64,000 nt of DNA from positions 42,877-106,876 of the forward strand of contig CAZUAI010000006.1 of NCBI GenBank assembly GCA_964617875.1, written 5' to 3'. A model generated the notes under the pieces. The model saw only the letters and a program-made list of their open reading frames with translations, did not search any database and had not been told where the DNA came from. This document shows positions 3,779 to 22,845 of the stretch, one piece after another. A program made the position numbers and the translations under genes. Within the stretch, counting starts at the first letter, position 1. The number at the start of each line of letters is the position of its first letter. The DNA is from an uncultured Planctomycetales bacterium (GTDB taxonomy: Bacteria > Planctomycetota > Phycisphaerae > UBA1845 > PWPN01).

Positions 3779-5355
3779 GGCTGGTTCCCGTCTCCTTCTG
3801 ACCGTGTGGCCGGAGCCGAAGTCGGTTGCGTGGCCGACATCGGGGGCAGACGGCCGCCGACGGCTCGCTCCAGCTCGGCCATCGCAATGGCGTAATCGCG
3901 CCACACCCCGACATAGGCCTGGCGCTGAACGATCAGCGACTTCTGGGCGTCAATCAGTACGAGGATGTCCTTCTCGCCGGCCCGATACGTCCGCCGGGCG
4001 GATTCCACGTTTTCGTCGGCCTGAGGCAACGCCTGATCCCGATAGAACCGCACCTGTTCGTCGGCGATTCGTGCGACGATGATGGCGTCCTGAACCTGCC
4101 GCGCGACGGAGTCCAGCAGCGTTTCGTAGTCCTTGCGTTGCTGCTCCGCCTTGTACCCGGCCCTGGCGATCTGCGCCTGATTCTGGTCCCAGATCGGGAG
4201 CGTGATCTGCAGGGAAGGACCGAGCAGCGAATCCACAATCGCCCGCCGCTCCGCATCGCGCTGGGCCCTGGACTGAATGGATGGCGCGGTGAGCCGGCCG
4301 TTCGCCACGGACTCCCGGGCCGTGTCGGCGAGGACGTTGCGCCCCGGCAGCGCCTTGCGGTCGGGCCGCTCCCACTCCACGCCCGCCGCCACGCTGGGAA
4401 AAACCTTGAGATACTGCTGCCGGACTTCATCTTCCGCGGCCTGGACCCGCAGTGCGGCAGCGCGGGCATCCAGCCGTTCGGTCATGGCGAAGAGGAGCAA
4501 GGCCCGCTCGTCCTGGCCAAGCGGAAACGCCGTCGGCAGATTGTCTCGCAGGGTCCACGGCTTCTCCCAACGGCTCAAGCCCAGCGTGTTCGCGAGGGCT
4601 GTTTCGGCCAGGCGCCGCTGCCGTTGAACGTCCATCTGCTGCAGCCTGGTTTCCAGCAGACTTGTCCGTACGAGGTTGACATCGAGCTTGCCGGTCTCGC
4701 CGGCGTTGAACCGATCCTGGGCGAGCTGGAGCGACTTTTCCACCAGGGCGACGTTCTCGTTCGCAATCGCCTCCGCCTGCTGAAGCGCCAGAAGCCGGTA
4801 GGTCTGGGACTTGGTGTCCGCCGCCAGGTCCACGGCCTGCTGCACGACCTTCAGGATCGTCTGCTCCAACTGTGCTTCGGCGATCTTCTTGCGGACCGGG
4901 ATCTGCCAGAGGTCCACCAGTTCCTGCCCGAAACCCATGGTCAGCTTTGTCCGCCCGCCCCCTTCGGGAAACTGAGCCACGAGCGAGAACGATGGATTGG
5001 TCAGCAGGCCCGCCTGAACCAGGTCGGCGCGGGATGCGCCGATTTCCTGAAAGGCGGACTGCAGCGCGGGGCTCTTCAGCAGGGCCAGTCGGACGGCTTC
5101 ATCGACGGTCAGCCCGTCGGCCAGCAGTGCGTCCAGCTTGTCCTTCACAAGGGCGTCGGCCGAGGGTTCGTACACGTCGGGCGTGCCCGTCCGCTCCGTG
5201 ACCGACTGCGACGCCCGGCGGAAATCCTGCGCGGGATCAACGGCCGCGCAGCCGATGGCCAGCATGGGAATGGAGATCGTGCAGACGGCAACGAGCGCGA
5301 TCCGGCCGGCGCCGGGACGATTCTTCAATGTCCTAATCATGGTTGGCGCGATCAA
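3775..5355 (-). CDS. outer membrane efflux protein (TolC/CzcC/NodT-type OMF lipoprotein)
   Basis: 526 aa with an LAIGC lipobox and two OEP repeats. AGGAGG lies 9 nt upstream of ATG 5355. The gene at 58.4-59.9 kb is a paralogue. Confidence 0.85.
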   Translation of the reverse strand: MIAPTMIRTLKNRPGAGRIALVAVCTISIPMLAIGCAAVDPAQDFRRASQSVTERTGTPDVYEPSADALVKDKLDALLADGLTVDEAVRLALLKSPALQSAFQEIGASRADLVQAGLLTNPSFSLVAQFPEGGGRTKLTMGFGQELVDLWQIPVRKKIAEAQLEQTILKVVQQAVDLAADTKSQTYRLLALQQAEAIANENVALVEKSLQLAQDRFNAGETGKLDVNLVRTSLLETRLQQMDVQRQRRLAETALANTLGLSRWEKPWTLRDNLPTAFPLGQDERALLLFAMTERLDARAAALRVQAAEDEVRQQYLKVFPSVAAGVEWERPDRKALPGRNVLADTARESVANGRLTAPSIQSRAQRDAERRAIVDSLLGPSLQITLPIWDQNQAQIARAGYKAEQQRKDYETLLDSVARQVQDAIIVARIADEQVRFYRDQALPQADENVESARRTYRAGEKDILVLIDAQKSLIVQRQAYVGVWRDYAIAMAELERAVGGRLPPMSATQPTSAPATRSEGDGNQP

Positions 5356-6568
5356 CTCGTCCTCCTGCCAGATACAGCATGAAGCCTGCTCCGGCGATCA
5401 TCAGAACCAAGGCGTACATGACGCCGAACTTGATGCCGAAGACCGTCCACAGCCAGCCCACCAGGATGCTGCTGATCAGATCGCCCATGCCGGTCACCAC
5501 GGCCAGCGCCCCGAACCCGCTGCCCCGGATGCTTGCGGGCAGGAGTTCGGCCGCGACGGCGTCCTCGACGGCCTCATACAGGCCGACGCCGGTGCCGCCG
5601 AGCGCGAACATGAGCGCCAGGCCGATGTAGCTGTCGACGCCCGCCATCATGCAGACGGCCGCCAGGGCCGCGGCCAGATAACCGGCCACGAGAAGCATCC
5701 GCTTGTTCGTGCGATCCGCCATCCATCCGCCGAGGTACGACCACGAGGCGTACAGCACGTTGTGCAGCGTGTAACCGGCCACGGAGAGGGTGGCGGCTTC
5801 GGCGGGTCCGATCCTGGGGGAAAGAACCGTCACCGTATACAGGATGTAGAAGGTGTCGGCAAAATCGCCCAGGCCGAACAGGCCGACGGCGCCGAGGAAC
5901 TCCTTGAATCGTGAGCCGAAGCCACCGAAGCTCTTGAGGAAAGGGGTGCTGACCGGCGTGCGGTCGGTCCGCTCGCGGACGAGGAATGCGATCGCGAGGA
6001 CCGCCACGATCGCCGGGAAGACGGAAAGCAGGATTACGCTGCGATGAGTGAGCCCCGCTCGCAAGAGGAACAGGACGGCCACCGGCGCCGCGATGGCACC
6101 GGTCGTATCCATCGCCCGCTCCAGCCCGAAGGCCCGGCCGTAGGTGGCCGGCGTCACGGCGTCGGCGAGCAACGCCTTTCGCGCCGGGGTGCGCAGGCCG
6201 CGTGAGACCCACGCCAGGACCCGGCCGCCCAGCACCACGAACCAGTTGCCTGCCAGGGCGATCACCACCGGGGAGAACGCCATGAAGCCGTAACCGCCGG
6301 CACAGAGGACCTTCCGGCGGCGGAGCCGATCCGCCAGCCAGCCGCCGTAGAGTTTCGCGAGGCTCGAGAAGCCGTCGGCGAAGCCCTCGATCGTCCCCAG
6401 GGCCCCGGCGGCAGCGCCCATGGAGGCCAGGAAGGCCGGCAGCGTGGACGTCACAGCCTCATGGCTCATGTCGCTGAACAGCGACGCAAGGCCGATGCCC
6501 ACGACAGTCCGATTCAGCCAATGTATGCCGGAACCGCGCGCCGTCCTGTCAGCGGCTGGATGACTCAT
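5333..6568 (-). CDS. MFS transporter
   Basis: About 411-421 aa with 12 predicted TM segments and a GxLaDrxGrR-like motif (GGWLADRLRRRK). The ATG at 6568 overlaps the upstream stop (ATGA). An alternative start is 6598. The 3' end overlaps the OMF start by 23 nt. Confidence 0.75.
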   Translation of the reverse strand: MSHPAADRTARGSGIHWLNRTVVGIGLASLFSDMSHEAVTSTLPAFLASMGAAAGALGTIEGFADGFSSLAKLYGGWLADRLRRRKVLCAGGYGFMAFSPVVIALAGNWFVVLGGRVLAWVSRGLRTPARKALLADAVTPATYGRAFGLERAMDTTGAIAAPVAVLFLLRAGLTHRSVILLSVFPAIVAVLAIAFLVRERTDRTPVSTPFLKSFGGFGSRFKEFLGAVGLFGLGDFADTFYILYTVTVLSPRIGPAEAATLSVAGYTLHNVLYASWSYLGGWMADRTNKRMLLVAGYLAAALAAVCMMAGVDSYIGLALMFALGGTGVGLYEAVEDAVAAELLPASIRGSGFGALAVVTGMGDLISSILVGWLWTVFGIKFGVMYALVLMIAGAGFMLYLAGGRVDRANHD

Positions 6569-7839
6569 TTGCGTTGTATTGGATCGGGTCGCGGACATGA
6601 GGGCAAGGCGGCCTCCGCTTCCTCCACGCGCAGCCATCCCGCGTGCAGGCACCACGCCATCGTCAGCCCCATGACAAACCCAAGGGCCACGTTGTTCAAC
6701 GCCAGGCAGGCGGCGGCGGTCAGCAGCATGGCGAACGCATCGGTCCGGCGGGTCTGATCGCGACACACGAGCGAAAGCTCCATGCCGCTGAATGCCAGCA
6801 TGACCCCGAGAATGCTGGCGGGGAAGGCACTGCACAGGGTCATGAGCGATGCGCCGACGAGTATGGCAAGGGTGATCTTCACGGCGCCAAGGAACAGGAT
6901 TGCACCGTTGGTTCGTGCTCCAAACCGATACTGTCCGGCCAGTCCGCCGGCTCCGTGGCACATCGGCATGCCGCCAAACCAGCAGGCCACGAGATTCATG
7001 ATGCCCACGGAAACGGCGACCTTGCGCGGCGCGGCCTGTCGTCCCGGGAACAGGTCCGCCGACAAGGCGGTTACCGCGATGACCGAGTTCAACGTCGTGA
7101 GGGGAATCTGCGGCAGGGCGACCTTCGGAAAGGCCGCGACGAAGTCCGCCCGGGCCGGCGGTTGCCAACCCGGCCATGTGAAACCGATGCCGAGCGACCC
7201 CAACACCTCCGGATGTGTCCATATCGCGACGGCCAGGCCCGCCGCAAACAGGAGAAGCGCCGCCGGGATCGTTCGCGAGAAGAAGAGCAGGAGGACCAGC
7301 AGCGCGGCCAGCAGGCCCGTCAGGCAGCTATCACCCGCGAACCACGTGCCGGTGCCGGCGACCATCTGGATGCCCTTGATCATCAGCGACAGGCCCAGCG
7401 CGAGCTGCAAGCCGCGGACTACGCTGCGGGGCACGACCCGGTTCAGCCAGTCGATCAGCCCGGTCAGCCCGAGCAGCAGCACCACCAGGCTGACTGTCGC
7501 GCCGGCGGCCAGGATCTGCGGCACGGTCAGCCCCTGGGTGATCGCCACGGTTGCGATGGCCTTCATGGGCTGCACGGCCATCGGGATGCTGAAGGTCAGG
7601 CCGGTGACGACGTTAAACAACCCGGAGAAGAACAACGCCGAGGCGAAGTTGAGCCCGTTCTGCGCCGCCATGCCGACAAGCAGCGGCAGGAACGTGCCCA
7701 GGTCGCCGAGGCTGCCGGCAATCTCATGCCGGTCGATTCGCGCGCACCCCAACGGCTGGAGAAACCGCGGCCATCCGGGCCGCGCCGTCTCAATCGCCGC
7801 GCGGGCCTCTACCGCACTGGACAAGAAGGCTGCCGCCAT
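6565..7839 (-). CDS. MOT1-family (MFS-related) putative sulfate/molybdate transporter
   Basis: HEIAGSLGDLGTFLPLLVGMAAQNGLNFASALFFSGLFNVVTGLTFSIPMAVQPMKAIATVAI matches the MOT1/PF16983 signature, as I recall it. Start is ATG 7839; a TTG at 7863 is the alternative. Confidence 0.7.
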   Translation of the reverse strand: MAAAFLSSAVEARAAIETARPGWPRFLQPLGCARIDRHEIAGSLGDLGTFLPLLVGMAAQNGLNFASALFFSGLFNVVTGLTFSIPMAVQPMKAIATVAITQGLTVPQILAAGATVSLVVLLLGLTGLIDWLNRVVPRSVVRGLQLALGLSLMIKGIQMVAGTGTWFAGDSCLTGLLAALLVLLLFFSRTIPAALLLFAAGLAVAIWTHPEVLGSLGIGFTWPGWQPPARADFVAAFPKVALPQIPLTTLNSVIAVTALSADLFPGRQAAPRKVAVSVGIMNLVACWFGGMPMCHGAGGLAGQYRFGARTNGAILFLGAVKITLAILVGASLMTLCSAFPASILGVMLAFSGMELSLVCRDQTRRTDAFAMLLTAAACLALNNVALGFVMGLTMAWCLHAGWLRVEEAEAALPSCPRPDPIQRK

Positions 7840-7916
7840 GACACCGCAGCCAGTCCACGACAAGCCTGCTCAACGTCGCCGCAATCACGGCCGCTCCGGG
7901 GGCTTGTCCGTCCCCG

Positions 7917-9203
7917 TCAGGCCTTGCCGGCAAACGGATTTCCGAAAACGGCCGCCTTGCCCAGTTCCGCCTCGATCTCCAGCAGCCGGTTGTACTTGGC
8001 GATCCGCTCGCTGCGGCACGCGGAACCGGTCTTGATCTGGCCGCCGCCCATCGCCACGGCGAAGTCGGCCATGAAGGCATCTTCGGTCTCGCCCGAGCGG
8101 TGCGACACGACGAAGCCCCAGCCGGCCTTGCGGCACATATCGATGGCCTCGATGGTCTCGGTCACCGTGCCGATCTGATTCAGCTTGATCAGCACGGCGT
8201 TGGTGGACTGTTCCTTGATGCCCCGCTCGATGAACTTCGTATTCGTGACGTACAGGTCGTCGCCGACGATCTGGATGCGCGAGCCCAGCGCGGCCGTGTG
8301 CTGTTTGAACCCGGCCCAGTCGTTCTCGGCCAGGCCGTCTTCGATCGAGACGATCGGGTACTTCTCCACCCAGCCCTTGTACAACGCCGTCATCTCGGCG
8401 CTGTTCTTCCTGCCCTGGCCCGACTTCGAAAGCTGGTAGGCCCCGTCCTCGAAGAAGGAGCTGGCCGCCGGGTCGAGCGCGATGGCCACGTCCTTGCCGG
8501 GTTTGTAGCCGGCGGCCTGGATGGCCTCCACGATTACCTCGCAGGCCTCGTCGTTGCTCTTGAGGTTGGGCGCGAACCCGCCCTCGTCGCCGACGCTTGT
8601 CGCGTAGCCTTTCTTGTGCAGGATGGACTTGAGGGCGTGGAAGGTCTCCGCGCCGTAGCGAAGGGCCTCGGCGAACGTCGGGGCGCCGACGGGCATGCAC
8701 ATGAACTCCTGGAAGTCCACGCTGTTGTCGGCGTGCTTGCCGCCGTTCAGGATGTTCATCATGGGCACCGGGATGCGGACCGCGCCCGTTCCGCCGAGGT
8801 AGGCGTAAAGGGGAAGATCCGCCGCCATCGCGGCCGCGCGGGCCACCGCCATGGACACGCCGAGGATGGCGTTCGCCCCCAGCTTGCCCTTGTTGGGCGT
8901 GCCGTCCAGTTCGATCATCAGGCGATCGATCTGGGCCTGGCGGTTCGGAGCCATGCCCACGATCTTCGGGGCAATGAGGTCATTGACGTTGGCGACGGCC
9001 TTGAGCACGCCCTTGCCGCCGTAGCGCTTCTTGTCGCCGTCCCGCAGTTCGACGGCCTCGTTCTCGCCGGTGGAGGCGCCGGACGGGACACAGGCCGCGG
9101 CCGTGATCCCGTTGTCCAGGGTCACCGAGACCCGCAACGTCGGATTGCCGCGAGAATCCAGAATCTCCAGGGCCCGTACCGATGCGATATTGCTGTTCAT
9201 CAT
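7917..9203 (-). CDS. eno: enolase (phosphopyruvate hydratase)
   Basis: 428 aa, [32 protein letters not shown]...[51 protein letters not shown] lies 3-4 nt upstream of ATGATG at 9203. No stop separates it from the upstream ORF. Confidence 0.95.
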
Positions 9204-9632
9204 TAACTCCTTTCTTGAATCATGACGCATTGTCATTGTGCGTAAACCAACAGATGCCGCAAGAGCCGCCTTGCGGATCATCGGATTCGGATGAAGCCTG
9301 AGTCCGGCCAGACACCGCCGGGCGGCGGCGGTTCCGATCCGGCCCAGGGCGGCGATGGCCGCCTGCGCCACGAACACCGCCTGCATGTCCCGCGTGTCCC
9401 GGGTCCGTTCGACCAGTTCGATCAACGGCGCGACGGCCCGGCGTTCCTTCCGCTGCCCCAGCAGGAGGGCGCATCGCTCGGGCGTGGTGGGCTCCGGATG
9501 GCGCAGCGAGACCATGAGCTTCTCCGGGTAGCTGAGCGAGCCCCAGTATTCCCTCAGGTTCAGGCCGCAGCGAGGGCAGCATTCGAGGTCCTCGGCAAAG
9601 TCGTCCCAGCAGCGGGGACAGAAGAACCGCAT
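9204..9632 (-). CDS. zinc-ribbon + HEAT-repeat (PBS-lyase-like) protein, in frame with eno and no stop codon between
   Basis: [30 protein letters not shown] (CPRC-x9-CPRC) followed by HPEP...LIELVE...ALGRIG...[18 protein letters not shown]-like repeats. The ORF reads ...RHDSRKEL directly into MMNSN of enolase. Confidence 0.55.
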
Positions 9633-9633
9633 C

Positions 9634-10344
9634 TCAGTCCATTCTCGCCCGTTGAAGCATCCGGGCCAGGTCCTCCCGAATCGGGGCCTCCACCGGCAAC
9701 GCACCGATGGCCTCCAGGGCGGGGGTCCGGTCGTATTCCGCCCGCCGGCTCTGAACCGCGCCGTCCTCCCACAGCGCATACGGCGCCCGCGCATCACCAT
9801 CCAGCGGCTGACCGAGCGAGCCGGGATTGACGATCTGCAGGGTTCCGTGGCGGCGGATCAGCGGGAGGTGCGTGTGGCCCGCCACGAGTAGGTCGGCCAG
9901 AACCCTGCCGGCGACGTCGTCGAGGATCGCATCGCATCCCTGGGGGGTCAGGCGGTAGTCGTACAGAGGGTCGATGGGCGTCGCATGCGTCACGGCGAAC
10001 GGAACGCCGCCGATTTCGCATCGCAGGCTCAGCGGAAGCCGGCCCAGCCACGCCAGGTCGTCCGGGCCCAGCTGCGCGCGGGTCCAGTCCCGCATGGCCA
10101 GGGCCAGGGGCTGCTTGGCCGGGCTGGCCTTGGGATCGGCCAGGAAGGCGACGGCATGGTCATGGTTGCCGCGCACGGCGATCGCCTCGTGCTGCCGAAG
10201 CCACGCCACCGCAGCCCCGGGGGCCGGACCGTAGTTCACCGTGTCGCCGGCGCAGATGACGTGGTCGAACCGCCCGGCGTCGCGTTCCACGGCGGCGAGG
10301 GCCCAGGGGTTGGCATGGATATCAGAAAGCATCAGAATCCGCAT
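9634..10344 (-). CDS. metallophosphoesterase (calcineurin-like, YfcE-type)
   Basis: [12 protein letters not shown]...GDTVNYGP...GNHD...GHTH motifs. Start is uncertain; the ORF extends to 10413, and 10344 is the first Met of the phosphoesterase fold. The stop lies 1 nt from the ZnR/HEAT ATG. Confidence 0.7.
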
Positions 10345-10536
10345 CGCCCAAACCATCTCCGAACCCGTGACCCATGGCGTCATCGTCGCCGTCGGCCCCC
10401 GGCCGGGACGCATCGCGTCCGCAGTATATCAAGGGGGACCGGGCGGCTGGGCATACCCGTACACGAACCCGGCCGGTTTTCGCTTCCGGTGGGGTTGCTT
10501 GCTGCCGCGCTCAGTCGGTGCGGACCCCCACCCAGG

Positions 10537-10603
10537 ACAGCGGGTAGGAGTCATCAGGCTCCCCGACGGGGAACCAATTCACGGCGGACTCCATCGCCCG
10601 CCG
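10537..10603 (-). ncRNA. fluoride riboswitch (crcB RNA motif), copy 1
   Basis: Minus-strand RNA GGGCGAUGGAGUCCGCCGUGAAUUGGUUCCCCGUCGGGGAGCCUGAUGACUCCUACCC matches the GGCGAUGGAGUyCGCC...CUGAUGAyUCCUrC consensus, with an inserted hairpin. It is one of three near-identical copies in the window. Confidence 0.8.
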
Positions 10604-10604
10604 G

Positions 10605-10633
10605 ATCTTAGCGTGAACGCTGTGGGGCCGCAA
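10605..10633 (-). promoter_or_regulatory. sigma70-like promoter for riboswitch copy 1 (-35 TTGCGG, 17-nt spacer, -10 TAAGAT)
   Basis: Minus strand reads CCTTGCGGccccacagcgttcacgcTAAGATccggcGGGCGAUGG. The same TTGCxx-17-TAxxAT architecture precedes copies 2 and 3. Confidence 0.5.
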
Positions 10634-10855
10634 GGACGCCTTCAGGGCGAGACGGGGCGCCGCGAAGGCCGAGCGGACGCCCGCCTTCGGTTGCCGGGCA
10701 GGCTTGACTTTGGACGCGCCCGGCGTACCGTGCCCGGTTTGCCGAGGCCGGGCGGTTGTGCGGCGCGTGATGATCTGCACGCCCCGGTTCGATGGAGCCT
10801 GCTTGCGGAACGAGACGACAGCCCCGAGTCGTACTGATCCCGGGATCCTCGCGCC

Positions 10856-13483
10856 ATGCCGATTCTGCCCAGCATCATACTGCCCAAGAACCTGGTGGCC
10901 GCCCTGAAACGTCACTCGTCGGACATCCGTGTTGCGCCGCTTCTGCTGGAAACGGCCTCCGTTGCGGCGCCTCTGGCTCTTGACAAGCTGGGGACAACAG
11001 CGAACGGGCTAAGCGAAGAAGCGGCTCAGGCGCGCCTGGAAGAGCACGGTCCGAATGTCGTTGCGCAGGAGCATCGGCACGGCAAGCTCGTCCTCCTGGG
11101 CAAGGCACTGATCAATCCCCTGGTGATCCTGCTGCTCATTCTGGCCGCGGTGTCGTTCCTCACCGGCGATAACCGCGCGGGAACCGTCATGTCGTTGATG
11201 GTCGTCCTCGGCGTGGTGCTGCGATTCGTTCAGGAATCGCGGGCCGATACCGCCGCGGCCAGACTGAAGTCCATGATCAGCGTAACCGCAACGGTCGTCC
11301 GCGAGGGGCGGACGCGAGAGATTCCGCTGGCCGATCTGGTGCCGGGCGATGTGGTCAGGCTTGCCGCCGGGGACATGATCCCGGCCGATCTTCGGCTCAT
11401 TTCCGCCAAGGATCTGTTTATCATACAGGCAAGCCTGACCGGCGAGTCGCTTCCCATTGAGAAGTTCGAGGTGACGGAATCGAACGGAAAACCAGCTCTT
11501 GAACTCCGGAATCTTTGCTTCCTGGGCACCAGTGTGGAGAGCGGAACGGCCACCGGGGTAGTCGTGGCCACCGGCTTGCAGACCTACCTGGGAACCATGG
11601 CCAGAGCCTTGGCCGGCGAGCAGGCACAAACCAGCTTCGACAAGGGGGTCAGTCGATTCACGTGGCTCATGATCCGCTTCATCGCCGTGATGGTGCCGCT
11701 GGTGTTTGTTATCAACGGCCTCACCAAGCATGACTGGCACGAAGCATTCTTCTTTGCGGTGGCGGTCGCGGTAGGCATGACGCCCGAGATGCTGCCGATG
11801 ATCGTGACCGTCTGCCTGTCGAAGGGCGCTCTGGCCATGTCCCGTCGCAAGGTCATCGTCAAGCGGCTCAACTCCATCCAGAATCTTGGTGCGATGGACG
11901 TGCTCTGCACCGACAAGACCGGCACGCTCACCATGGACCACGTGATTCTGGAGAAACATTGCGACGTCTTTCGGCGGGAGGATGATGGCGTCCTGATCCT
12001 GGCGTATCTCAACAGCCACTTCCAGACCGGCCTCAAGAATGTGCTGGACCGAGCCATCCTGGACCATCGGGAAGTCCACGACATGGTCTCCATCGCTGAC
12101 CACCTGAAAGTGGACGAGATCCCGTTCGATTTCTCGCGCAAGCTGATGTCCGTCGTCGTGCAGTTGCCGGAAGGAGGCCGTCGGCTCATCTGCAAGGGCG
12201 CGCCCGAAGTCGTCTTCCAGAGATGCAGCCAGTTTGAGGTTAAGGACCGGACGTACCCCATGCGGCAGGTCTACATTGACGATCTTCGCGAAGAGTACGA
12301 CGAACTCAGCGCCGATGGCTTCCGTGTGCTGGCCATTGCTCACAAGGATCTGGAGCCGAAGGCCGCCTATTCCCGAGAGGATGAGTACGACCTGACGTTG
12401 AATGGCTACGTGGCCTTTCTTGATCCTCCGAAGGATTCCGCCGGGCCCGCGATCGAGGCGCTTGGCAAGCACGGCGTCGCCGTCAAGGTTCTCACGGGAG
12501 ACAACGATCTGGTCAGCCGAAAGATCTGTCATGAGGTCGGCATCCCGAGCGAGGAGGTATTGCTTGGCCCGCAAGTCGAGGCCATGTCCGATGCCGAGCT
12601 GGCGCATGCCGCGGAGCACACGTCCCTGTTTGCCCGCCTTTCTCCGGCCCACAAACAGCGGATTATCCGTGCGCTGCAGGGGAACGGACACGTGGTCGGT
12701 TTTCTGGGCGACGGAATCAATGACTCGCCCGCCCTCCGCACCGCCGATGTGGGAATCTCCGTCGATACCGCCGTCGATATCGCCAAGGAAGCCGCCGACG
12801 CCATCCTGCTCGAAAAGAGCCTCATGGTGCTGGAGGAAGGCGTCCTCGAAGGACGCAAGGTCTTCGCCAACATCCTCAAGTACATCCGCATGGGAGCCAG
12901 CTCGAACTTCGGCAACATGTTCAGCGTGCTGGGGGCGAGCGTCTTTCTGCCGTTCGTGCCAATGGCCCCGATCCAGATCCTTACCAATAACCTGCTGTAT
13001 GACTTCTCGCAGGTTCCCATTCCGACGGACAACGTGGACCCCGAACAGATTGCCAAGCCCCGACCATGGTCGATGAATGAGATTACTCGGTTCATCCTCT
13101 TCATTGGCCCGTGCAGTTCGATTTTCGATTACACGACCTATTTCATCATGCTTTACGTCTTCCGTTGCTGGAGCCCCGACCGTGCGTCGTTGTTCCAAAC
13201 CGGCTGGTTCGTGGAATCCCTTATGACGCAGACGCTCATCATTCACATCATCCGGACCAACCGGATCCCGTTCCTGCAGAGCCGCGCCAGCCTGCCTCTC
13301 TCGATTACTACGCTGTTGATCATGGGTATCGGGATGTGGCTGCCGTTTTCACCTGTTGCATCTTCACTGGGCTTTACGCCACTGCCCGGTCTGTACTGGC
13401 CGCTGCTCTTCCTGACGTTGCTCTGCTACGGTTTGCTCACGCAGGCCGCCAAGACCTGGCTTCTGCGTAAGGCGTGGATCTGA
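10856..13483 (+). CDS. mgtA: magnesium-translocating P-type ATPase
   Basis: 875 aa with DKTGTLT, TGDN and GDGINDSPAL motifs and the typical MgtA N-terminus. Confidence 0.9.
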   Translation: MPILPSIILPKNLVAALKRHSSDIRVAPLLLETASVAAPLALDKLGTTANGLSEEAAQARLEEHGPNVVAQEHRHGKLVLLGKALINPLVILLLILAAVSFLTGDNRAGTVMSLMVVLGVVLRFVQESRADTAAARLKSMISVTATVVREGRTREIPLADLVPGDVVRLAAGDMIPADLRLISAKDLFIIQASLTGESLPIEKFEVTESNGKPALELRNLCFLGTSVESGTATGVVVATGLQTYLGTMARALAGEQAQTSFDKGVSRFTWLMIRFIAVMVPLVFVINGLTKHDWHEAFFFAVAVAVGMTPEMLPMIVTVCLSKGALAMSRRKVIVKRLNSIQNLGAMDVLCTDKTGTLTMDHVILEKHCDVFRREDDGVLILAYLNSHFQTGLKNVLDRAILDHREVHDMVSIADHLKVDEIPFDFSRKLMSVVVQLPEGGRRLICKGAPEVVFQRCSQFEVKDRTYPMRQVYIDDLREEYDELSADGFRVLAIAHKDLEPKAAYSREDEYDLTLNGYVAFLDPPKDSAGPAIEALGKHGVAVKVLTGDNDLVSRKICHEVGIPSEEVLLGPQVEAMSDAELAHAAEHTSLFARLSPAHKQRIIRALQGNGHVVGFLGDGINDSPALRTADVGISVDTAVDIAKEAADAILLEKSLMVLEEGVLEGRKVFANILKYIRMGASSNFGNMFSVLGASVFLPFVPMAPIQILTNNLLYDFSQVPIPTDNVDPEQIAKPRPWSMNEITRFILFIGPCSSIFDYTTYFIMLYVFRCWSPDRASLFQTGWFVESLMTQTLIIHIIRTNRIPFLQSRASLPLSITTLLIMGIGMWLPFSPVASSLGFTPLPGLYWPLLFLTLLCYGLLTQAAKTWLLRKAWI

Positions 13484-13787
13484 AATGAAGCGGCCGGCGA
13501 TGAATGCCGTATGACCGCGAGCGGGGCGGCATCACCATAGTGTTGCGGATCCCGACCAGATCACATAGAATCGGGTTGGCGATGGGGTTCGCCAGCGTCC
13601 CGACCCGCCGTGGCTCGGACCAACCGCCTGCCCGACGACAGGCTGATAACCCCTGCTGAACTGCGTGCTACGTTCCGGCAGGGTATCAGCCGCTCAATCT
13701 CAACTCTGTCGAACGACGACGCAGCCAGAAGGATCGCTCCGGCCGTTCTGCTTCGCGCTCGGGACGGAGCCTTCGGAGAGCGAGCGG

Positions 13788-15902
13788 ATGAACGAACATC
13801 ATCAACGGTGTATCGCCACCACACTGCGTCATATCGACGGCGTGTTCGCCGAGATCGAGGGGATTCTGGCCGCCATCGGCACGGGTTCGCCGCTGTCCCA
13901 GTACGCCCTGGACCTGGAGCCGATGCAGCGTGGGGTCGTCGAGGACCACCTGCACCGGATTCGGGAGGAGATGGTGGAGGCGATGAAACGGCTCGGCATT
14001 CCGCTGGACGGGCGTCGGACCAGCGCCTGCTGGTCCATCCGCAATCGCCTGCTCGGGGCGTCGATCGCGATCGCCGAGATGGAGCCGCCTCATCTTCGGG
14101 GGTACGGGGCACTGGATGCGCACGACAAGGCCGAGATCACGCGGGTCTGTGCGGAAATGGAACGGCTGATCGGCCGGGTCGATTCGTATCTGGCCCGCGT
14201 GCACGGCGGCGACCTGGCGCAACGAATCGCGCATCTGGAAGGTACGCCGGTGGATCGCGACTTGCTCACCACCCTGGAGCAGATCATCGGCAGGCACCAT
14301 CTGATCGAGCTGCGGCCCGCGCTCGACGTGATCCTCCATCGCCTGGAATCACCCCAGTTCGAGATCGCCTTTTTCGGTCGCGTCAGCTCCGGGAAATCCT
14401 CGCTGCTCAACCACATCCTCGGCGAAAGCGTCCTGCCCGTGGGCATTACCCCGGTGACCGCGGTGCCGACCCGGCTGCGACGCGGGGAGCGGCCGGAGAT
14501 GGTGGTTCACTTCGAGATCTCGTCGCCCGCCCGCCTGCCCATCGATCAGGTCGCCGAATTCGTGACGGAAGAAGGCAATCCGCGAAACCGTCGCCGGGTG
14601 AAGTGGGTTGAGGTGACGGTCTCCACGGCGCAGTGCTCCGAGGGCGTCGTGTTCGTGGACACTCCCGGCGTCGGATCGCTGGCCACCGTCGGCGCGGCCC
14701 AGACCATGGCGTACCTGCCGCGATGCGATCTCGGAGTCCTGTTGCTCGACGCCGGTTCGACCCTGCACCAGGAAGACCTCCGGATCCTGCAGGGTTTCGA
14801 GGAAGCGGCCATTCCGGCGATGGTCCTGCTCAGCAAGTGCGACCTGCTCCGCGCGGATGACCGGCAACGCATGATTCACTACGTCGAACAGCAGGTTCAC
14901 GAGGCCTTGGGGCTTTCGATCGTCGTGGCGCCGGTGAGTACCGTCGGCCCGGATGCGCATCTGGCCCACGAATGGTTCGAGGCGCATGTCCGTCCGATCA
15001 TGCGGAGGCACCGGGAGCTGACGGCCGCTTCGATTCGGCGAAAGGTCGGAGCGCTCCAGGAAACGCTTATCGCGACGTTGAGCAGTATGCTCCGCCGGAG
15101 AAGCGGCCGCTCCGCACCCGTAGCGCGTGACAGCGCCGAGGCGGCCCGGCTTCTGGAGGAGGCCGCGACGCGCATCGCCCGGTTCACGGAATGGGCCGCG
15201 GATTTCGATGCCCGCCGGACTTCGGAGGATGTGGCGCGGCTGATCGAAGACGCCGCCGTGCAGATGGTGCCGGGGCGGGGCGGCGGCCAGACCCCGCCGG
15301 TCGGTCTTCGCGACGTTCTGCTGACGCGGCTGGCGACCGAGGCGTCGTCGTTCCGGGACGGCGTCATCGGGTTGCAGGCCGACCTGACGAACACGTTGAT
15401 TCAGCTGGGCGAAAAGGTCGGCAGCATCGGAGGCCCTGAGGCCCGGAGGCTGGAGATGTCCCTGACCCCGCTTCCGCCGGCCCGCGAGGAGAATCTGGCC
15501 GCGATTCCCGACATTCGTCCGTCGAAGTTGCTCATGTCGTGGCGATGGCTTGCGCGGGCAAGGCTGCGTGCGGGCCTGCGTCGTCACTGCCGTTGGCCGA
15601 TCGAGACGGCGCTTGGCGATCATCGTCGCGAGTTGCGAACGTGGTTGAAAACCAACCTGGACCGCCTCGTGGAGGCCTACGAAACCCATGCCGGTGTGTA
15701 CCGGGAGGAACTGCGCCGCGCCACCGAGGCGTCGGGAGACGGCGGACGCGCCGAAGATTCCTCACTGGAAGAGGATCTGGACAGGTTGCAACGGCTCGCG
15801 GGACGGTTCCGCGAGCCGCAAAGCCCGTCCACCGCGGGCGAGCCGGCAGAGTCGGCCCCGACCGGACAGGGCGACGGGACGGTTCCGGTGCAGGCCTGTT
15901 GA
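13788..15902 (+). CDS. dynamin-like GTPase (DLP-C) with ~190-aa helical N-terminal extension
   Basis: P-loop GRVSSGKSSLLN, G3 DTPGVGS, G4 SKCD. cGGAGAG lies 7 nt before ATG 13788. The ORF is open from 13665. Confidence 0.7.
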   Translation: MNEHHQRCIATTLRHIDGVFAEIEGILAAIGTGSPLSQYALDLEPMQRGVVEDHLHRIREEMVEAMKRLGIPLDGRRTSACWSIRNRLLGASIAIAEMEPPHLRGYGALDAHDKAEITRVCAEMERLIGRVDSYLARVHGGDLAQRIAHLEGTPVDRDLLTTLEQIIGRHHLIELRPALDVILHRLESPQFEIAFFGRVSSGKSSLLNHILGESVLPVGITPVTAVPTRLRRGERPEMVVHFEISSPARLPIDQVAEFVTEEGNPRNRRRVKWVEVTVSTAQCSEGVVFVDTPGVGSLATVGAAQTMAYLPRCDLGVLLLDAGSTLHQEDLRILQGFEEAAIPAMVLLSKCDLLRADDRQRMIHYVEQQVHEALGLSIVVAPVSTVGPDAHLAHEWFEAHVRPIMRRHRELTAASIRRKVGALQETLIATLSSMLRRRSGRSAPVARDSAEAARLLEEAATRIARFTEWAADFDARRTSEDVARLIEDAAVQMVPGRGGGQTPPVGLRDVLLTRLATEASSFRDGVIGLQADLTNTLIQLGEKVGSIGGPEARRLEMSLTPLPPAREENLAAIPDIRPSKLLMSWRWLARARLRAGLRRHCRWPIETALGDHRRELRTWLKTNLDRLVEAYETHAGVYREELRRATEASGDGGRAEDSSLEEDLDRLQRLAGRFREPQSPSTAGEPAESAPTGQGDGTVPVQAC

Positions 15903-15914
15903 ATCGGCAGATCG

Positions 15915-17705
15915 TCAACCGGGCAGAAAGGCTGCCTCCGGGCGCCAGGGGAAACACAGACTCCGTTGGCCGACAAGCTGCGTCAATGCGCGTCGATGGG
16001 CCTCGGTCTCGTCGCGGTTTTCGAGGCTGCGCCGCAGGGCGTCGTGCTTTATCGCGAAGCTCTGCATGTCCTCGGCCAGCGCGCCGAGGTGTCGTGCGGC
16101 TTCCCGCAGCAGGAACCGGCGTGTTTCGCCGTCCGGCACCAAGACGATGAGAGGTGCCAGATGCCGCAGGCAGACGCCGGAAGACCGGGCATAAGCCTCG
16201 CGGCCTCCTGCATCGGCCAACAGGGTCGCCAGCCGCTGCGTGCCGTCGCGCTCGTGGTCCGCCAGCAGCCGGCAGACACGGCAGGCGGCCTGCCGGCCGG
16301 TGAGTTCGTCGAACGCGGCCTCCGGCCCGTTCTCGTTTGCCGCGAAAGCCGACAGGGCGGTCGTCCGTTTCTCCAGCAACGCGAAGTAGCCCACGCTCAG
16401 GCCCCGGGGCGAGGAGATGCCGGCGAGCTGCCAGGTGTGCAACGGGCAGAAGCCGCCCTCTTCGGCGAAGGACTGCTGAGCGGCTTCATCGGTCGCGAGA
16501 GCGTGCTGCCATCGTCGGAGGAAATCGAAGGCCGCTTCGGTCAGGTGGTTGCAGACGGGGCAGGTTCCCGCACGGAGCGCGGCCACGATCTCCGATTCTT
16601 CGATGGGTTCGGCCGGTTTCGTCCGCGGCGTCGGCGATGAACACGGCGGACCTCCCCGCGCCGCGGCCGGAGGCGTCGGCGTCGCGTCAACCTGACCCGC
16701 GAGAATCCCCTCGCGCAGCCGTTGAATGGCGGTTCGCCGCTCGACGGCTTCCGGGTGCTGCTGGCCTGCGATAAGTCCCTCGGCACGATCCAGGATCGCG
16801 GCCAGGAACGTCGTGGTCCGCTGGTCGGTCAGGAAATCCGCCAGCGCCGCCTCCAGGGCCGGAAGCCCGCTCTGTGCCAATCCGTGTGCGTCCCGCGCGG
16901 CTCGGGCCGCCAGCGCCGCCCGCGACGACAGGGGAAACAGGGGCGGCCGCGCCGCGCCCATCCGACGGGAGAGATTGTCGCCGATGAACCGCAGGGCAGC
17001 CTCCCGCTCCGCGTTCGCCAGCAGGTCCATCTTGTTGACGACGAAGAAGACCTTGCGGACATGCGCGCGGAGGCGGTCCAGGAACTCCAGTTCCGTCGCG
17101 GCCAGCGGACCGTCGGCGCTGGTCACGAACAGAACCGCATCGCACTGGGGGACGAAGGCATACGTCGTTGCGGTGTTCGCTTCGATGGCCGAGCCGATGC
17201 CGGGCGTATCCACGAACTCCAATCCACGCCGCAGGAAGGGCGACGGGAACTCCACGTATACCGCCTTGATTCGCTTCCGGTTGGCCGGATTGCCCGTCTC
17301 CGTCACGTACTCGGGCAGCGCCGAAATCGGGGCTTCGTCATCGAACGACCGGTTCTGACGGGAAATGACCAGCCGTTCCTCCGGACCGAACCGCAGGATG
17401 GTAATGGCGGACGTGAGCGGCAGGATGCCCGTCGGCAGAAGCTCCCGGCCGACGATGGCGTTCATGAGCGAACTCTTGCCGCGTTTGAACTGGCCCACAA
17501 CGGCCAGGGTGAAGCGGTCTTCGGCCAGCTTGACCATCAATTCATGGCAGGCGGCGACCCGGTCATCCCCGCCGTGCCGGCCGAGCCAATGGTCCAGGGC
17601 GCGAACCTGCCGTGCCACCGCCTGCCTGGCCCGCACGTAGGCCCTCAGACGCGACGAATCGGACTCGAGCGGGGACACCGCCGGACTCGTGGGCGACGGC
17701 ATCAT
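15915..17705 (-). CDS. dynamin-like GTPase (DLP-B) with Cys-rich C-terminal domain
   Basis: GQFKRGKSSLMN, DTPGIGS, NKMD. The C-terminus carries CPVC...CPLH...CRVC...CLRH. Its ATG overlaps the DLP-A stop (ATGA). Confidence 0.8.
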   Translation of the reverse strand: MMPSPTSPAVSPLESDSSRLRAYVRARQAVARQVRALDHWLGRHGGDDRVAACHELMVKLAEDRFTLAVVGQFKRGKSSLMNAIVGRELLPTGILPLTSAITILRFGPEERLVISRQNRSFDDEAPISALPEYVTETGNPANRKRIKAVYVEFPSPFLRRGLEFVDTPGIGSAIEANTATTYAFVPQCDAVLFVTSADGPLAATELEFLDRLRAHVRKVFFVVNKMDLLANAEREAALRFIGDNLSRRMGAARPPLFPLSSRAALAARAARDAHGLAQSGLPALEAALADFLTDQRTTTFLAAILDRAEGLIAGQQHPEAVERRTAIQRLREGILAGQVDATPTPPAAARGGPPCSSPTPRTKPAEPIEESEIVAALRAGTCPVCNHLTEAAFDFLRRWQHALATDEAAQQSFAEEGGFCPLHTWQLAGISSPRGLSVGYFALLEKRTTALSAFAANENGPEAAFDELTGRQAACRVCRLLADHERDGTQRLATLLADAGGREAYARSSGVCLRHLAPLIVLVPDGETRRFLLREAARHLGALAEDMQSFAIKHDALRRSLENRDETEAHRRALTQLVGQRSLCFPWRPEAAFLPG

Positions 17706-19555
17706 CGCTGATCCTGTTCTCGGGCGGCCGTTGTCGCAAGACGCTCCTTGAGCCCCCGCAGGCCGGCGACCGCCGCCTCGAGCCGCGCGATTTCCGGGGC
17801 AACCGTCGCCGAGTCTTCCGTGCGACGTCGTCGAGCGGCGCCAAGGGCCCGGCGAGTCGCTTCAATCGTCTGCCGAAGGCTGTCTTCCAGGGCGTCACGG
17901 AAGTCCTGGATGCTTGTCCTGAGATTCTCCAGGGTACTCCATCGAAGATCTCCGATGTTGCGAGTCACGAGGTACTCCACCTGGTCCGCGAGTCGCCGCC
18001 GAATGCGGGAATGCCGCAAGCGCCGCGGAAGCACTCTGTCGATCCAGTCCGTGGGAATCGAGCCGGGTCCCTGAATCGCCCACTTGTGAACGCGCCAGCA
18101 GGGCTGTTCCACCTTCGCCAGGGCGATCTCGCGGTGCTGCGGCTCATACGGAACGTCGAAGACCTTCGCAATGGAGGCGTGAACCGCGGCGACCAGTTCG
18201 GCCGCCCGGCGCTGATGGGGCCGCAGGGCCTCGTGCAGTTCGCGCTCGCAAAGCTGATGGGCGGCACCGAACTCCCGCTCGAAAAAACCGGGGATGGCCG
18301 CGGCAATGGCCTCGCGGGCGGTCTCCTCCGACCACCGGTTCCCGTCCCGAATCTCGCATTCGCGGAGGACTTTCGTGAAGAACTCGATGCTTCCGGGCAG
18401 CATCGCATCGGCGCGCATCTTGACGGCTTCCGCCAGACGCTGTTCGTCCCTGGCAAGGCGGTCGAGGGCCACGATGCGCCGTTCCTCGATTTCGGTCAGG
18501 CTGTTCTCGAAGCGACCGATGCGGTCGTCGAGGTCGGCCAGCGGCATCTGCAGGGACCGCAGAGTCAGTTCCAGGCGATGCTGGACATCGGCGAGAATGT
18601 CCCCCGCCTGGCGGGCCACCGCGCGGCTGAGCACGTCTTTCTTCTCGGTGAGCAGGAAGCTGACGATCTGCTCTTCGATCGCCGCCACGCCGCTCCGTTC
18701 CCAGGCGGCGTCATCCTGCCCCTGGCGAGCCGCCAGGCCCTGGCGGGCCGAGGCGCAGAAGATCGGCGGCGGCGAGGTGAACCCGACGTGCTCGCAGAGC
18801 GCCCGCTGGAGAAACCGTACGGCCTCGTCCCGCTCGGCCGCGTCGAGGTAATCCACCTTGTTCAGGATGAAGAACAGGCGGGCCAGTTTGCGGCGCGCGA
18901 GCTTGAGAAACTCCACCTCGACCTCGGTGATCGGCGGATCCGCGGACACCACGAACATCGCCGCATCGCACTGCGGGAGAAAGTTGACGGTCGCCTCGGT
19001 GTTGTGGCGAAAGGTCGAACCGATGCCGGGCGTATCGATCAGCGAGAGGCCCCGACGCAGCACCGGCGCGGGATACGCGGCTTCGATCAACCGGACCCCC
19101 AGGTGGTTGCGCGGGTTCGCGCTTTCGGCGACAAAACGCGCGAGGAAACCCGCCAGGGCCGCGGCGTCCGGCCCGAGGAGCCGCTCTTCCGGCTTCCCGT
19201 TTTCGAATACCACCCGGGCCGCCGGCTGCTCGCCGCCGTGCAGAAACGTCGGGATGGACGTGACCGGCACAACGGCGGCAGGCAGGACGGGGGCTCCCAG
19301 CAACGCATTGATCAACGTGCTCTTGCCGCGTTTGAACTGGCCGAGCACGGCCAGATGACAGCGTTCCTCCCGCAGACGTTCGTGCAGAGCGAGAATGCGA
19401 TGCCGGTCGGCCCCGAATTCCTCGCCCATCGCCCCCACCTGACCGGCGGCTTCCTGCAGGAGGGTTGGCAGTTGGACGGACTCCGCGACATGCCGGGCCG
19501 TCGTCTCCGGCCGGTTGTCCGAATCCGCGTCGGCATGGAGGACGAAATCAGTCAT
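17702..19555 (-). CDS. dynamin-like GTPase (DLP-A)
   Basis: GQFKRGKSTLINALLG, DTPGIGS, NKVD, and a long coiled-coil stalk. Overlaps the TPR gene's stop by 8 nt. Confidence 0.8.
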   Translation of the reverse strand: MTDFVLHADADSDNRPETTARHVAESVQLPTLLQEAAGQVGAMGEEFGADRHRILALHERLREERCHLAVLGQFKRGKSTLINALLGAPVLPAAVVPVTSIPTFLHGGEQPAARVVFENGKPEERLLGPDAAALAGFLARFVAESANPRNHLGVRLIEAAYPAPVLRRGLSLIDTPGIGSTFRHNTEATVNFLPQCDAAMFVVSADPPITEVEVEFLKLARRKLARLFFILNKVDYLDAAERDEAVRFLQRALCEHVGFTSPPPIFCASARQGLAARQGQDDAAWERSGVAAIEEQIVSFLLTEKKDVLSRAVARQAGDILADVQHRLELTLRSLQMPLADLDDRIGRFENSLTEIEERRIVALDRLARDEQRLAEAVKMRADAMLPGSIEFFTKVLRECEIRDGNRWSEETAREAIAAAIPGFFEREFGAAHQLCERELHEALRPHQRRAAELVAAVHASIAKVFDVPYEPQHREIALAKVEQPCWRVHKWAIQGPGSIPTDWIDRVLPRRLRHSRIRRRLADQVEYLVTRNIGDLRWSTLENLRTSIQDFRDALEDSLRQTIEATRRALGAARRRRTEDSATVAPEIARLEAAVAGLRGLKERLATTAAREQDQR

Positions 19556-19976
19556 GGCACTCCGAATCTGTCGGGAAATCGGCGGGGACGGAATCCGCTT
19601 GCGTCATGCCGGCCGAATCTGCCTCCGGCTCAGGGGGCTCCTGCCCCGGCCAGAAGTGGCGCCACATGCGGCGAACTGTGGCATCGTCCCGGCGTTCGCG
19701 AAAGAGCTGGGCCAGCAGGGCGCGGGCTTCGTCCATGCGGTTCAGATGGGTCAACGCAACGGCCCAGTGAACCTTGAACGACGGCTCAAAGGGGTTTACG
19801 TATACGGCGCGTCGGAATTGGGACTCGGCCAGTTCGAAGGCCTCGCGCTGGAGGAAATAGCAACCCATATCGTCGCGGTCGTAGCCCAGATAGTGGCTGG
19901 GCCGCAGGACTTCCTCGCGGATGATCTGCGGGTCGCGAGTGCGGTGTCGCCTTTTCGGCTCGTCCGGGAGGCTCAT
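19548..19976 (-). CDS. small TPR-repeat protein
   Basis: MSLPDEPKRRHRTRDPQIIREEVLRPSHYLGYDRDDMGCYFLQREAFELAESQFRRAVYVNPFEPSFKVHWAVALTHLNRMDEARALLAQLF. The ORF is open to 20030; the start was chosen at the first Met after the terminator. Confidence 0.55.
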   Translation of the reverse strand: MSLPDEPKRRHRTRDPQIIREEVLRPSHYLGYDRDDMGCYFLQREAFELAESQFRRAVYVNPFEPSFKVHWAVALTHLNRMDEARALLAQLFRERRDDATVRRMWRHFWPGQEPPEPEADSAGMTQADSVPADFPTDSECHD

Positions 19977-20018
19977 GGTCCGCCATACCTCCGTGCCGCA
20001 GGCCGACGGCCTGCCAAC

Positions 20019-20058
20019 AGAAAACCCCACACAGGAATCGTCCTGGCGGGGTTCCCGT
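20019..20058 (-). terminator. intrinsic terminator forming the expression platform of fluoride riboswitch copy 2
   Basis: Minus-strand RNA CCCCGCCAGGACGAUUCCUGUGUGGGGUUUUCUG: GC stem plus U tract between the aptamer and the TPR start. Confidence 0.5.
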
Positions 20059-20085
20059 TACACGATGGCCCCTACCCAGGTCGAT

Positions 20086-20139
20086 TCGGGCAGGAGTCAT
20101 CAGGTCGGCAGGACCGCTTAACGGCGGACTCCATCGCCA
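20086..20139 (-). ncRNA. fluoride riboswitch (crcB RNA motif), copy 2
   Basis: UGGCGAUGGAGUCCGCCGUUAAGCGGUCCUGCCGACCUGAUGACUCCUGCCC, followed by a conserved CCUGCCCGaAUCGACCUGGGuAGG hairpin. Confidence 0.8.
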
Positions 20140-20144
20140 TAGAT

Positions 20145-20173
20145 ATTTTAGGCCCGGCGGGCGTCGTGTGCAA
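20145..20173 (-). promoter_or_regulatory. sigma70-like promoter for riboswitch copy 2 (-35 TTGCAC, 17 nt, -10 TAAAAT)
   Basis: Minus strand reads CCTTGCACacgacgcccgccgggccTAAAATatctaUGGCGAUGG. Confidence 0.55.
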
Positions 20174-20188
20174 GGGCCGTCTTTTGTC

Positions 20189-20539
20189 TCAGGCCTTTGC
20201 GCCCACGCCGTTCGCCCGGTACTTGATCACGCGGACTTTTTCCAGCGTGATGAGTCCTTCCACCACCATCTCATCGATGTAGGGCAGGAGCAGATTGACC
20301 TTCTCCTCGCTGTCCACGATCTCGATGATAAAGGGGAGGTCTTCCGACAGCCGCAGGATCTTCGTCGTGTGCAGCCGGCTGTGGGCGCCGAAGCCCATCG
20401 GGCCGCGAAGCACCGTCGCCCCGGCCAGATGAAGCTCGCGGGCCTTCATCACGATGGCCTCGTACAGCGGCTTGCCGTGCCACTTGTCGTTCTCGCCGAT
20501 GAAGATGCGCAGCAACTGCGCTTCGCCTTCCAGTTTCAT
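20189..20539 (-). CDS. DUF190 (PII-like) protein, common CrcB neighbour
   Basis: MKLEGEAQLLRIFIGENDKWHGKPLYEAIVMKARELHLAGATVLRGPMGFGAHSRLHTTKILRLSEDLPFIIEIVDSEEKV. Confidence 0.75.
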   Translation of the reverse strand: MKLEGEAQLLRIFIGENDKWHGKPLYEAIVMKARELHLAGATVLRGPMGFGAHSRLHTTKILRLSEDLPFIIEIVDSEEKVNLLLPYIDEMVVEGLITLEKVRVIKYRANGVGAKA

Positions 20540-20542
20540 TCA

Positions 20543-20956: not shown

Positions 20957-20965
20957 GGTTACCTC

Positions 20966-22219: not shown

Positions 22220-22289
22220 CGACCTCCTGCCGCAGCCTTCCCCTCCGCCTGACCGCCCTCGACGGCCTTCCGGTCCGCATTCGTGGCCG

Positions 22290-22842: not shown

Positions 22843-22845
22843 GCT

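Follow-up and report, generated by a model that had tools for sequence, protein, structure and literature searches.

In a 64,000-nucleotide (nt) contig stretch from an uncultured Planctomycetales bacterium (contig CAZUAI010000006.1; hereafter the window), the gene for a small zinc-ribbon and HEAT-repeat protein (ZnR-HEAT) runs in frame, with no stop codon, into the gene for enolase, within an operon preceded by a fluoride riboswitch. We consider it likely that this arrangement arose by natural loss of a stop codon in a translationally coupled gene pair of the fluoride-riboswitch operon, and that it yields an N-terminally extended enolase plus the free enzyme. All parts of the operon lie on the minus strand.

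The fused open reading frame (ORF) encodes 571 amino acids (aa) and extends over 7917-9632, with no in-frame stop codon from 9632 to 7920. It comprises the zinc-ribbon and HEAT-repeat core (aa 1-126, 9255-9632), an AT-rich tail or linker that is stop-free in frame (aa 127-144, 9201-9254), and enolase (427 aa plus stop, 7917-9200), which ends in TGA at 7919-7917. The ZnR-HEAT ATG at 9632 is 1 nt past the stop codon of the phosphoesterase gene upstream. By homology, enolase begins at ATG 9200. An AAGGAG Shine-Dalgarno (SD) sequence for this internal start (9207-9212) sits 3 nt before ATG 9203 and 6 nt before ATG 9200, both inside the 14-18 residue linker, and the junction as assembled (9190-9270) carries GAGTTAATGATG. 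A preliminary description of this DNA had reported a stop-free frame of 571 aa and an AAGGAG belonging to enolase within the junction; reading the frame directly from 9632 to 7917, and finding AAGGAG at 9212-9207, bore out both statements. A longer ORF from ATG 9800 (627 aa) was rejected, as it overlaps the phosphoesterase gene in another frame and all homologues start with M-x-F/Y-F/Y-C-P.

The tail or linker has a GC content of 0.39 and a third-position GC content (GC3) of 0.35, while GC3 is 0.85 in the ZnR-HEAT core. Over the last 17 codons GC3 falls from 0.84 to 0.35, which is more than in relatives, yet the trend is family-wide. The low GC3 of these codons was therefore not accepted as a decisive sign of recently non-coding origin, as the coding tails of unfused relatives drop too, less strongly. 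By our own estimate, a stop-free run of about 17 AT-rich codons in one frame has a chance of ~0.4, so the significance of the open junction rests on the relatives and not on the statistics of the window sequence.

The nearest syntenic locus, L125 (GCA_964401335.1), has the order riboswitch, phosphoesterase, ZnR-HEAT (142 aa), enolase and MFS transporter. Its ZnR-HEAT gene ends in AAGGAGCAGTAA, where TAA is the stop codon, followed by TCC and then by the enolase ATG in the same frame. The window counterpart, AAGGAGTTAATGATG, is shorter by 3 nt and has its TAA in another frame; the comparison thus indicates that a point change or a small indel separates the fused and unfused states. The two loci share 91% identity in enolase, 64% in the phosphoesterase and 44% in ZnR-HEAT, and on these sequences L125 is best taken as an illustration of the unfused state, not of the state of the window's immediate ancestors. 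An exact look-up of the 571-aa product returned no record, and hence no near-identical genome for comparison of the junction. The preliminary description had looked to related genomes for a stop codon between the two genes; stops do occur in relatives, but these are only 44-55% identical in ZnR-HEAT and no close genome was found. It had also left two options, a lost stop codon or a fusion made alongside free enolase. The same-frame TAA 3 nt before the enolase ATG of L125 speaks for the first, and the second is favored by five other lineages that share the stop-free fusion with the SD and ATG of enolase kept. The options are not mutually exclusive, and the sequence comparison favors each of them.

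The five further lineages with ZnR-HEAT-enolase fusions (539-567 aa) came from genomes and metagenomes, with L009 and P0126 counted as one. They are L009/P0126 (loci L009 and L039/L040; P0126 has 567 aa), P0124 (locus L041, 561 aa), P0125 (loci L042/L043, 565 aa), P0123 (locus L128, 567 aa) and P0136 (539 aa, N-terminally cut), the last at rank 14 in the search with the 571-aa product. P0123-P0126 head the list of that search, and their identity to the window product is 70-73% across 99% of the latter's length; P0136 falls in the same identity range over almost the full length. The same stop-free fusion is present in L009, from a metagenome-assembled genome (MAG) labelled Deltaproteobacteria, where it has 566-567 aa by choice of start codon. 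P0125 and P0126 were each found as identical DNA in two independent assemblies, and between L009 and L039 14% of bases differ with no indel, the fusion being kept in both. Linkers vary among the lineages in length and sequence, and fused and unfused members were interspersed in quick neighbor-joining (NJ) trees, built for each of the two domains without support values; together these observations suggest several independent fusion events. In L042/L043 and L128 no other gene stands between a fluoride riboswitch and the fusion gene; when loci with intervening genes are counted as well, a riboswitch lies upstream of it in L039, L041, L042/L043 and L128.

In every fused junction read as DNA, the enolase SD is retained 5-8 nt before the ATG, and the linker residues K-E (AAGGAG) and K-G-G (AAAGGAGG) are the former ribosome-binding site in translation. 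Unfused ZnR-HEAT and enolase genes are joined by a 4-nt ATGA overlap in six lineages, and a 17-nt overlap and gaps of 14, 52 and 301 nt were also found, the longest gap containing a riboswitch of its own. A profile of the six fusions was compared with 1.84 billion 50%-identity representatives, and among the best 150 matches the N-terminal module was left uncovered. This result is uninformative on the frequency of fusion because fused proteins have probably been absorbed into free-enolase clusters.

Two observations concern the DNA of the fused lineages. When L009 (360-2063) was aligned with L039 (7001-8704), the ZnR-HEAT part differed at 19 of 120 codons and the enolase part at 184 of 425, a mosaic pattern suggestive of recombination inside the fused gene. 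In L042 (1902-2685) and L043 (27-939), group II intron RNA domains (RF02012, RF00029) separate a DUF190-CBS gene from the riboswitch at the head of the fusion gene, and another group II intron match adjoins a fluoride riboswitch in L035 (7931-8060).

The ZnR-HEAT sequence of the window matches HEAT_2 (PF13646) with 35.1 bits against a cut-off of 27.7, and its four Cys, arranged as CPxC...CPxC (C5, C8, C19 and C22), are intact in alignments to 34 and to 117 members. Across the 117 members C5, C19 and C22 never vary, and C8 is kept in at least 90%. The Pfam zinc ribbon PF12773 (DZR) scored 16.7, under its cut-off of 27.3, despite the four Cys. Of the assignment made earlier from the sequence, the HEAT repeats were borne out by the profile search, and the zinc ribbon is a probable one on its conserved Cys. 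The family was defined in this analysis from its own alignments. An initial search gave four homologues of 130-169 aa; a genome scan gave 30 loci in MAGs labelled Deltaproteobacteria/Syntrophobacteraceae, Planctomycetota, Verrucomicrobiota, Acidobacteriota, Bacteroidetes, Chloroflexota and Methylomirabilis; and a profile search gave 381 members at E<1e-5, nearly all of 123-150 aa, so that membership of this family of ~130-aa proteins is at least 381. No NCBIfam model or solved natural structure was found for the family. Its signature is KLIxALxHPEPTTPxRAAWILG, of which the window copy keeps position 45, P46, E47, T50, P51, R53 and L58, with the near-invariant A54 changed to C and the consensus W56 to L. 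Hundreds of homologues, a core GC3 of 0.85 and a confidently predicted fold argue that the upstream ORF is a real gene. The suspicion that it might have no homologues and poor codon statistics, raised in the preliminary description, was not borne out.

The AlphaFold2 model of the ZnR-HEAT core had a predicted local distance difference test score (pLDDT) of 91.5 and was all-helical from residue 26, with an alphaRep/HEAT-like fold. Foldseek aligned the HEAT part (residues 36-126) to alphaRep chains with template modelling (TM) scores of ~0.56-0.8 and a root-mean-square deviation of ~2 Å, and the family profile matched alphaRep, deoxyhypusine hydroxylase (DOHH), CpcE and MTH187; no other structural relatives were recovered. 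In the model of the whole fusion two folded domains were joined by linker residues 131-144 with pLDDT below 50 (predicted TM score, pTM, 0.71).

The module was also found fused to other partners. In two sequences of 291 aa (P0066 and P0074) it carries a C-terminal HAD-type hydrolase; P0074 is encoded at L126 3627-4502, in the order dynamin-like GTPase, fusion, P-type ATPase and enolase. In P0069 the module is fused onto the C-terminus of a dynamin-like GTPase. These two kinds of fusion imply that fusion may partly reflect tight gene packing and not a specific bond to enolase. The protein P0038 has the ZnR-HEAT module plus an additional C-terminal zinc-ribbon domain, and in L029 (5279-5686) the N-terminus is scrambled (MARFLLYRLLGGFRERLWPMPSCGLDI) at the first CPxC site, such that this copy is probably frameshifted or decaying.

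At the head of the operon, the fluoride riboswitch aptamer (crcB motif, 10538-10607) was detected in a covariance-model search of the whole window with 37.9 bits against the gathering score of 34 for Rfam RF01734, the match covering model positions 1-64 of 64 (E=6.5e-7). It is the lowest-scoring of the window's four fluoride riboswitch copies. Both conserved aptamer cores, GGCGAUGGAGUCCGCC and CUGAUGACUCCUAC, were found in it, as were the P1 and P3 helices; P3 is longer, and AAUUGG stands in place of the AACCG linker. A simple promoter/terminator scan showed no intrinsic terminator 3' of the aptamer and nothing at the ZnR-HEAT/enolase junction.

A spacing of 193 nt separates the aptamer from the start of the phosphoesterase gene (236 aa plus stop, 9634-10344), for which ATG 10344 was picked by homology; further in-frame ATGs lie upstream at 10356, 10383 and 10413, and the stop codon is TGA 9636-9634. 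The product belongs to the YfcE family of metallophosphoesterases by Pfam Metallophos_2 (83.3 bits) and TIGR00040 (63.5 against a cut-off of 56.25), contains the motifs DIH, GD, GNHD and GHTH, and is 57-74% identical to the phosphoesterases that adjoin ZnR-HEAT genes in L001, L008, L015, L021 and L125. Enolase was identified by TIGR01060 (663.7 bits against a cut-off of 300), Enolase_N (197.8 bits) and Enolase_C (408.9 bits), with VGDD among its conserved motifs, and is 75-92% identical to the enolases of related fluoride loci. The layout given in the preliminary description, with a fluoride riboswitch followed by a YfcE-like phosphoesterase and with eno third in a co-directional set, was thus recovered by the family models in every part. 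Long antisense ORFs across enolase (for example 8100-9206, plus strand) were put down to high GC content. On the same strand, 3' of enolase, are an MFS_MOT1-type (molybdate-transporter-like) permease (6565-7863) and then an MFS_1 transporter (5333-6700). An MFS gene follows enolase in L125 and L124 as well, and so the operon may reach further.

Of 34 genome loci, 25 have a fluoride riboswitch that scores above the Rfam threshold no more than 4-6 kb from ZnR-HEAT, as do 11 of 18 metagenome loci (36/52 in all); several of the loci that show none end close to the gene. Because a genome has only a few fluoride riboswitches, the association looks very strong, as an impression gained from these loci without a formal background estimate. 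Neighboring genes were counted in 101 non-redundant ZnR-HEAT loci, using the window's own proteins to recognise them. Dynamin-like GTPases were present in 56 loci (adjacent in 33), YfcE phosphoesterases in 27 (adjacent in 14) and enolase in 24 (adjacent in 17).

Under the favored reading, fluoride would bind the aptamer and the operon would be switched on. Ribosomes would start at ATG 9632, probably coupled to termination at the phosphoesterase stop 1 nt upstream, and, unable to terminate at the junction, would go on to make the 571-aa protein, consisting of the Zn-ribbon/HEAT module, a flexible linker of ~14 residues and complete enolase. Other ribosomes, binding at the AAGGAG in the linker, would initiate at ATG 9200 or 9203, and their product would be enolase in its ordinary free form. 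The fusion would then be a natural and recurrent product of a frame-labile junction, which in relatives has an ATGA overlap or a separation of 3-14 nt. We propose that it is tolerated because the N-terminus of enolase accepts an extension and because both proteins belong to the same fluoride-response module. From this layout we infer induction by fluoride, the production of both proteins in some ratio, and a possible contact between the HEAT module and enolase.

Several results weigh against this reading, and they were considered together with the rival explanations. With a single base gained or lost in the AT-rich tail, a stop would reappear and overlap the start as TAATG, and TGA or TAA occurs in both other frames just upstream. 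If the true genome has a stop codon (TAATG, ATGA or a short gap), an indel error of 1-2 nt in sequencing or assembly would have fused the frames. In favor of such an error, no part of the region is richer in AT than the junction (38-48% GC), and each of the two alternative frames has a stop at most 40 nt away from the enolase ATG, the +1 frame reading TAA TGA TGA through the start codon. The majority of relatives also have a stop, and the exact product has no record elsewhere. We nevertheless find an artefact quite improbable, given that the same architecture is present in five other lineages, two of them identical across independent assemblies, that homopolymers in the tail do not exceed 3 nt, and that the frame agrees with the homologues up to the tail. 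The fused state is a minority one, seen at 1 of 12 junctions in the ZnR-HEAT-seeded sample, and L124, which has the enolase most similar to that of the window (92%), is without any ZnR-HEAT gene.

Other adverse points concern the state of the N-terminal module. At 145.8 bits the window ZnR-HEAT scores below the 116 members used to build the profile (157-203) and below the family median of 185; it is the most divergent complete, unscrambled member, only the scrambled copy of L029 (132.5 bits) being lower. An insertion lengthens it by 6 aa, and where the family conserves IRAAW it reads ERCAL. A zinc-ligand Cys is lost in P0125 and P0126, thus in 2 of 6 fused against 1 of 116 unfused sequences (Fisher p = 0.006, with the unfused set biased as the top-scoring one), which indicates that the module may be decaying rather than functional. 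Fused modules scored lower against the biased profile-building set (p = 0.007) and not against an independent unfused set (p = 0.26), and the profile score was accordingly rejected as a test for decay. It is conceivable, and we judge it unlikely, that ZnR-HEAT is decaying under relaxed selection, that loss of the stop is part of this decay, and that only free enolase matters, with the fusion a tolerated by-product; such decay is compatible with a real fusion ORF. It would fit the low score, altered signature and insertion of the window copy, the Cys losses in two fused lineages, the dispensability of ZnR-HEAT in L124 and the enolase SD and ATG kept in every fusion read as DNA. It is opposed by the core GC3 of 0.85, the four Cys and nearly all invariant residues kept, the pLDDT of 91.5, the ATG still coupled to the phosphoesterase stop, and the scores of P0123, P0124 and L009, which are like those of typical members, in keeping with the p = 0.26 above. 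A selected Rosetta-stone fusion, in which ZnR-HEAT binds enolase non-covalently and tethering is favored for 1:1 assembly under fluoride stress, is likewise compatible with a real fusion ORF, and we hold it doubtful too. Enolase is adjacent to ZnR-HEAT in 17 of 101 loci, usually with stop and start overlapping, the interspersion in the quick NJ trees suggests several origins, the HEAT part shares the fold of alphaRep protein binders, and loss of a zinc-ligand Cys only in fused copies could mean that a docking role of the ribbon has become redundant. Against tethering are the dynamin-like GTPase as the commonest neighbor (56/101, versus 24/101 for enolase), the fusions of the module to a HAD-type hydrolase and a dynamin-like GTPase, which may reflect tight gene packing, and the rarity of the fused state among junctions. 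The single-chain AlphaFold2 model of the fusion also gave no confident packing between the domains; at pTM 0.71 this result speaks neither for nor against docking.

A broader proposal, which we put forward as speculative and rather unlikely, is that ZnR-HEAT is a dedicated fluoride-stress adaptor that would dock on enolase, dynamin-like GTPases, the HAD-type hydrolase and the YfcE phosphoesterase, all Mg-dependent and phosphoryl-handling. If so, the fusions to three partners would be Rosetta stones of these contacts, and the clients would be made less fluoride-sensitive or be gathered at a membrane site remodelled by dynamin. Such an adaptor would add a layer of fluoride resistance at the protein level, beyond export and simple over-expression.

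Enolase is a classic target of fluoride, and its control by riboswitches is usually explained as making more of the inhibited enzyme. In the preliminary description it was called a known riboswitch-associated gene, and so it is recognised in the part of a 2024 review covered here (PMC11139923, citing Baker et al. 2012), which names among the associated genes exporters, Na+/H+ antiporters, pyrophosphatase, HAD-type phosphoesterases, enolase, formate hydrogen lyase and others. Dynamin goes unmentioned in the review, and no HEAT-repeat protein appears in the passages covered (PMC11139923). No paper in the searchable literature joins the fluoride riboswitch with a HEAT repeat or dynamin, as the supplements of Baker et al. 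2012 or of the Annual Review on fluoride exporters might; nor was discussion of ZnR-HEAT, the YfcE-type phosphoesterase or the dynamin-like GTPases found in the searchable fluoride literature. The link between riboswitch and enolase is therefore already known, and what appears to be new is that ZnR-HEAT belongs to the fluoride regulon and is widespread in it, that dynamin-like GTPases accompany it, and that it is recurrently fused to enolase.

The window resembles known fluoride-riboswitch enolase operons in its co-directional crcB-motif aptamer upstream and in the CrcB, Na+/H+ exchanger and Usp genes that stand behind riboswitches in the same island, and differs in that enolase is third, after the YfcE-type phosphoesterase and ZnR-HEAT, and is fused in frame to the latter. 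Residues 36-126 of ZnR-HEAT share fold and repeat sequence with PBS-lyase-type HEAT-like proteins (alphaRep, MTH187, CpcE/F, deoxyhypusine hydroxylase), which are protein-binding scaffolds; unlike them, the family adds an N-terminal CPxCW...CPxCG ribbon and the HPEPTTPxRAAWILG signature, has only about three repeats, and occurs in a fluoride-riboswitch context. The junction is like those of coupled overlapping pairs (ATGA/TAATG) that have become Rosetta-stone fusions, in that only stop loss or a small frame change sets the fused state apart from the ATGA overlaps and 3-14 nt gaps of relatives. It is unlike a simple Rosetta-stone fusion in that no fusion read as DNA has lost the ribosome-binding site and start codon of enolase, and the locus may thus yield two enolase isoforms. 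Internal initiation in frame is known to give long and short isoforms of IF2 (alpha and beta), ClpB and CheA (CheA-L and CheA-S). As in these, the in-frame SD and ATG of the window would give two products that share the C-terminal catalytic body; unlike in these, the arrangement probably came from the fusion of two separate genes, and the dual isoforms are a prediction.

Riboswitch-controlled enolase thus travels with ZnR-HEAT, the YfcE-type phosphoesterase and dynamin-like GTPases in many uncultured lineages, namely Planctomycetota, Desulfobacterota-type, Verrucomicrobiota, Acidobacteriota, Bacteroidota and Chloroflexota. A testable hypothesis follows from the in-frame fusions, that the HEAT module acts on or with enolase, and they also supply a ready-made construct for it. 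Annotation would call such loci an oversized 'enolase' or enolase alone, and the second gene would be hidden either way.

The operon belongs to a 15-kb fluoride island, with four fluoride riboswitches within ~12.3 kb (10500-22900). The other three copies (Rfam RF01734) lie at 13569-13662 on the plus strand and at 20084-20147 and 22785-22848 on the minus strand. The plus-strand copy has an insertion of ~25 nt between P1 and the linker, which makes it 94 nt long against the 64-nt model, and it still scores 44.3 bits. Riboswitches head the genes for CrcB, a Na+/H+ exchanger and Usp (20543-22706, minus strand), those for a TPR protein and two dynamin-like GTPases (15915-20030, minus strand) and that for a third dynamin-like GTPase (13665-15902, plus strand), while a P-type cation ATPase gene (10856-13483, plus strand) is without a riboswitch of its own. 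Dynamin-like GTPases, noted in the window (13665-19555) and in L001, L003, L039, L041, L125 and L126, often stand straight behind a fluoride riboswitch.

The enolases of ten fluoride loci (window, L001, L009, L013, L015, L016, L019, L029, L124 and L125) are 75-92% mutually identical across MAGs labelled Planctomycetota, Deltaproteobacteria and Terriglobia, and the riboswitch-linked enolase of L031 is only 58% identical. This distribution suggests a horizontally mobile enolase clade of fluoride islands. In L001, a tandem 7-nt repeat (GCGAGTT-like, ~12 copies) was observed at ~7400-7500, between the phosphoesterase and enolase genes.

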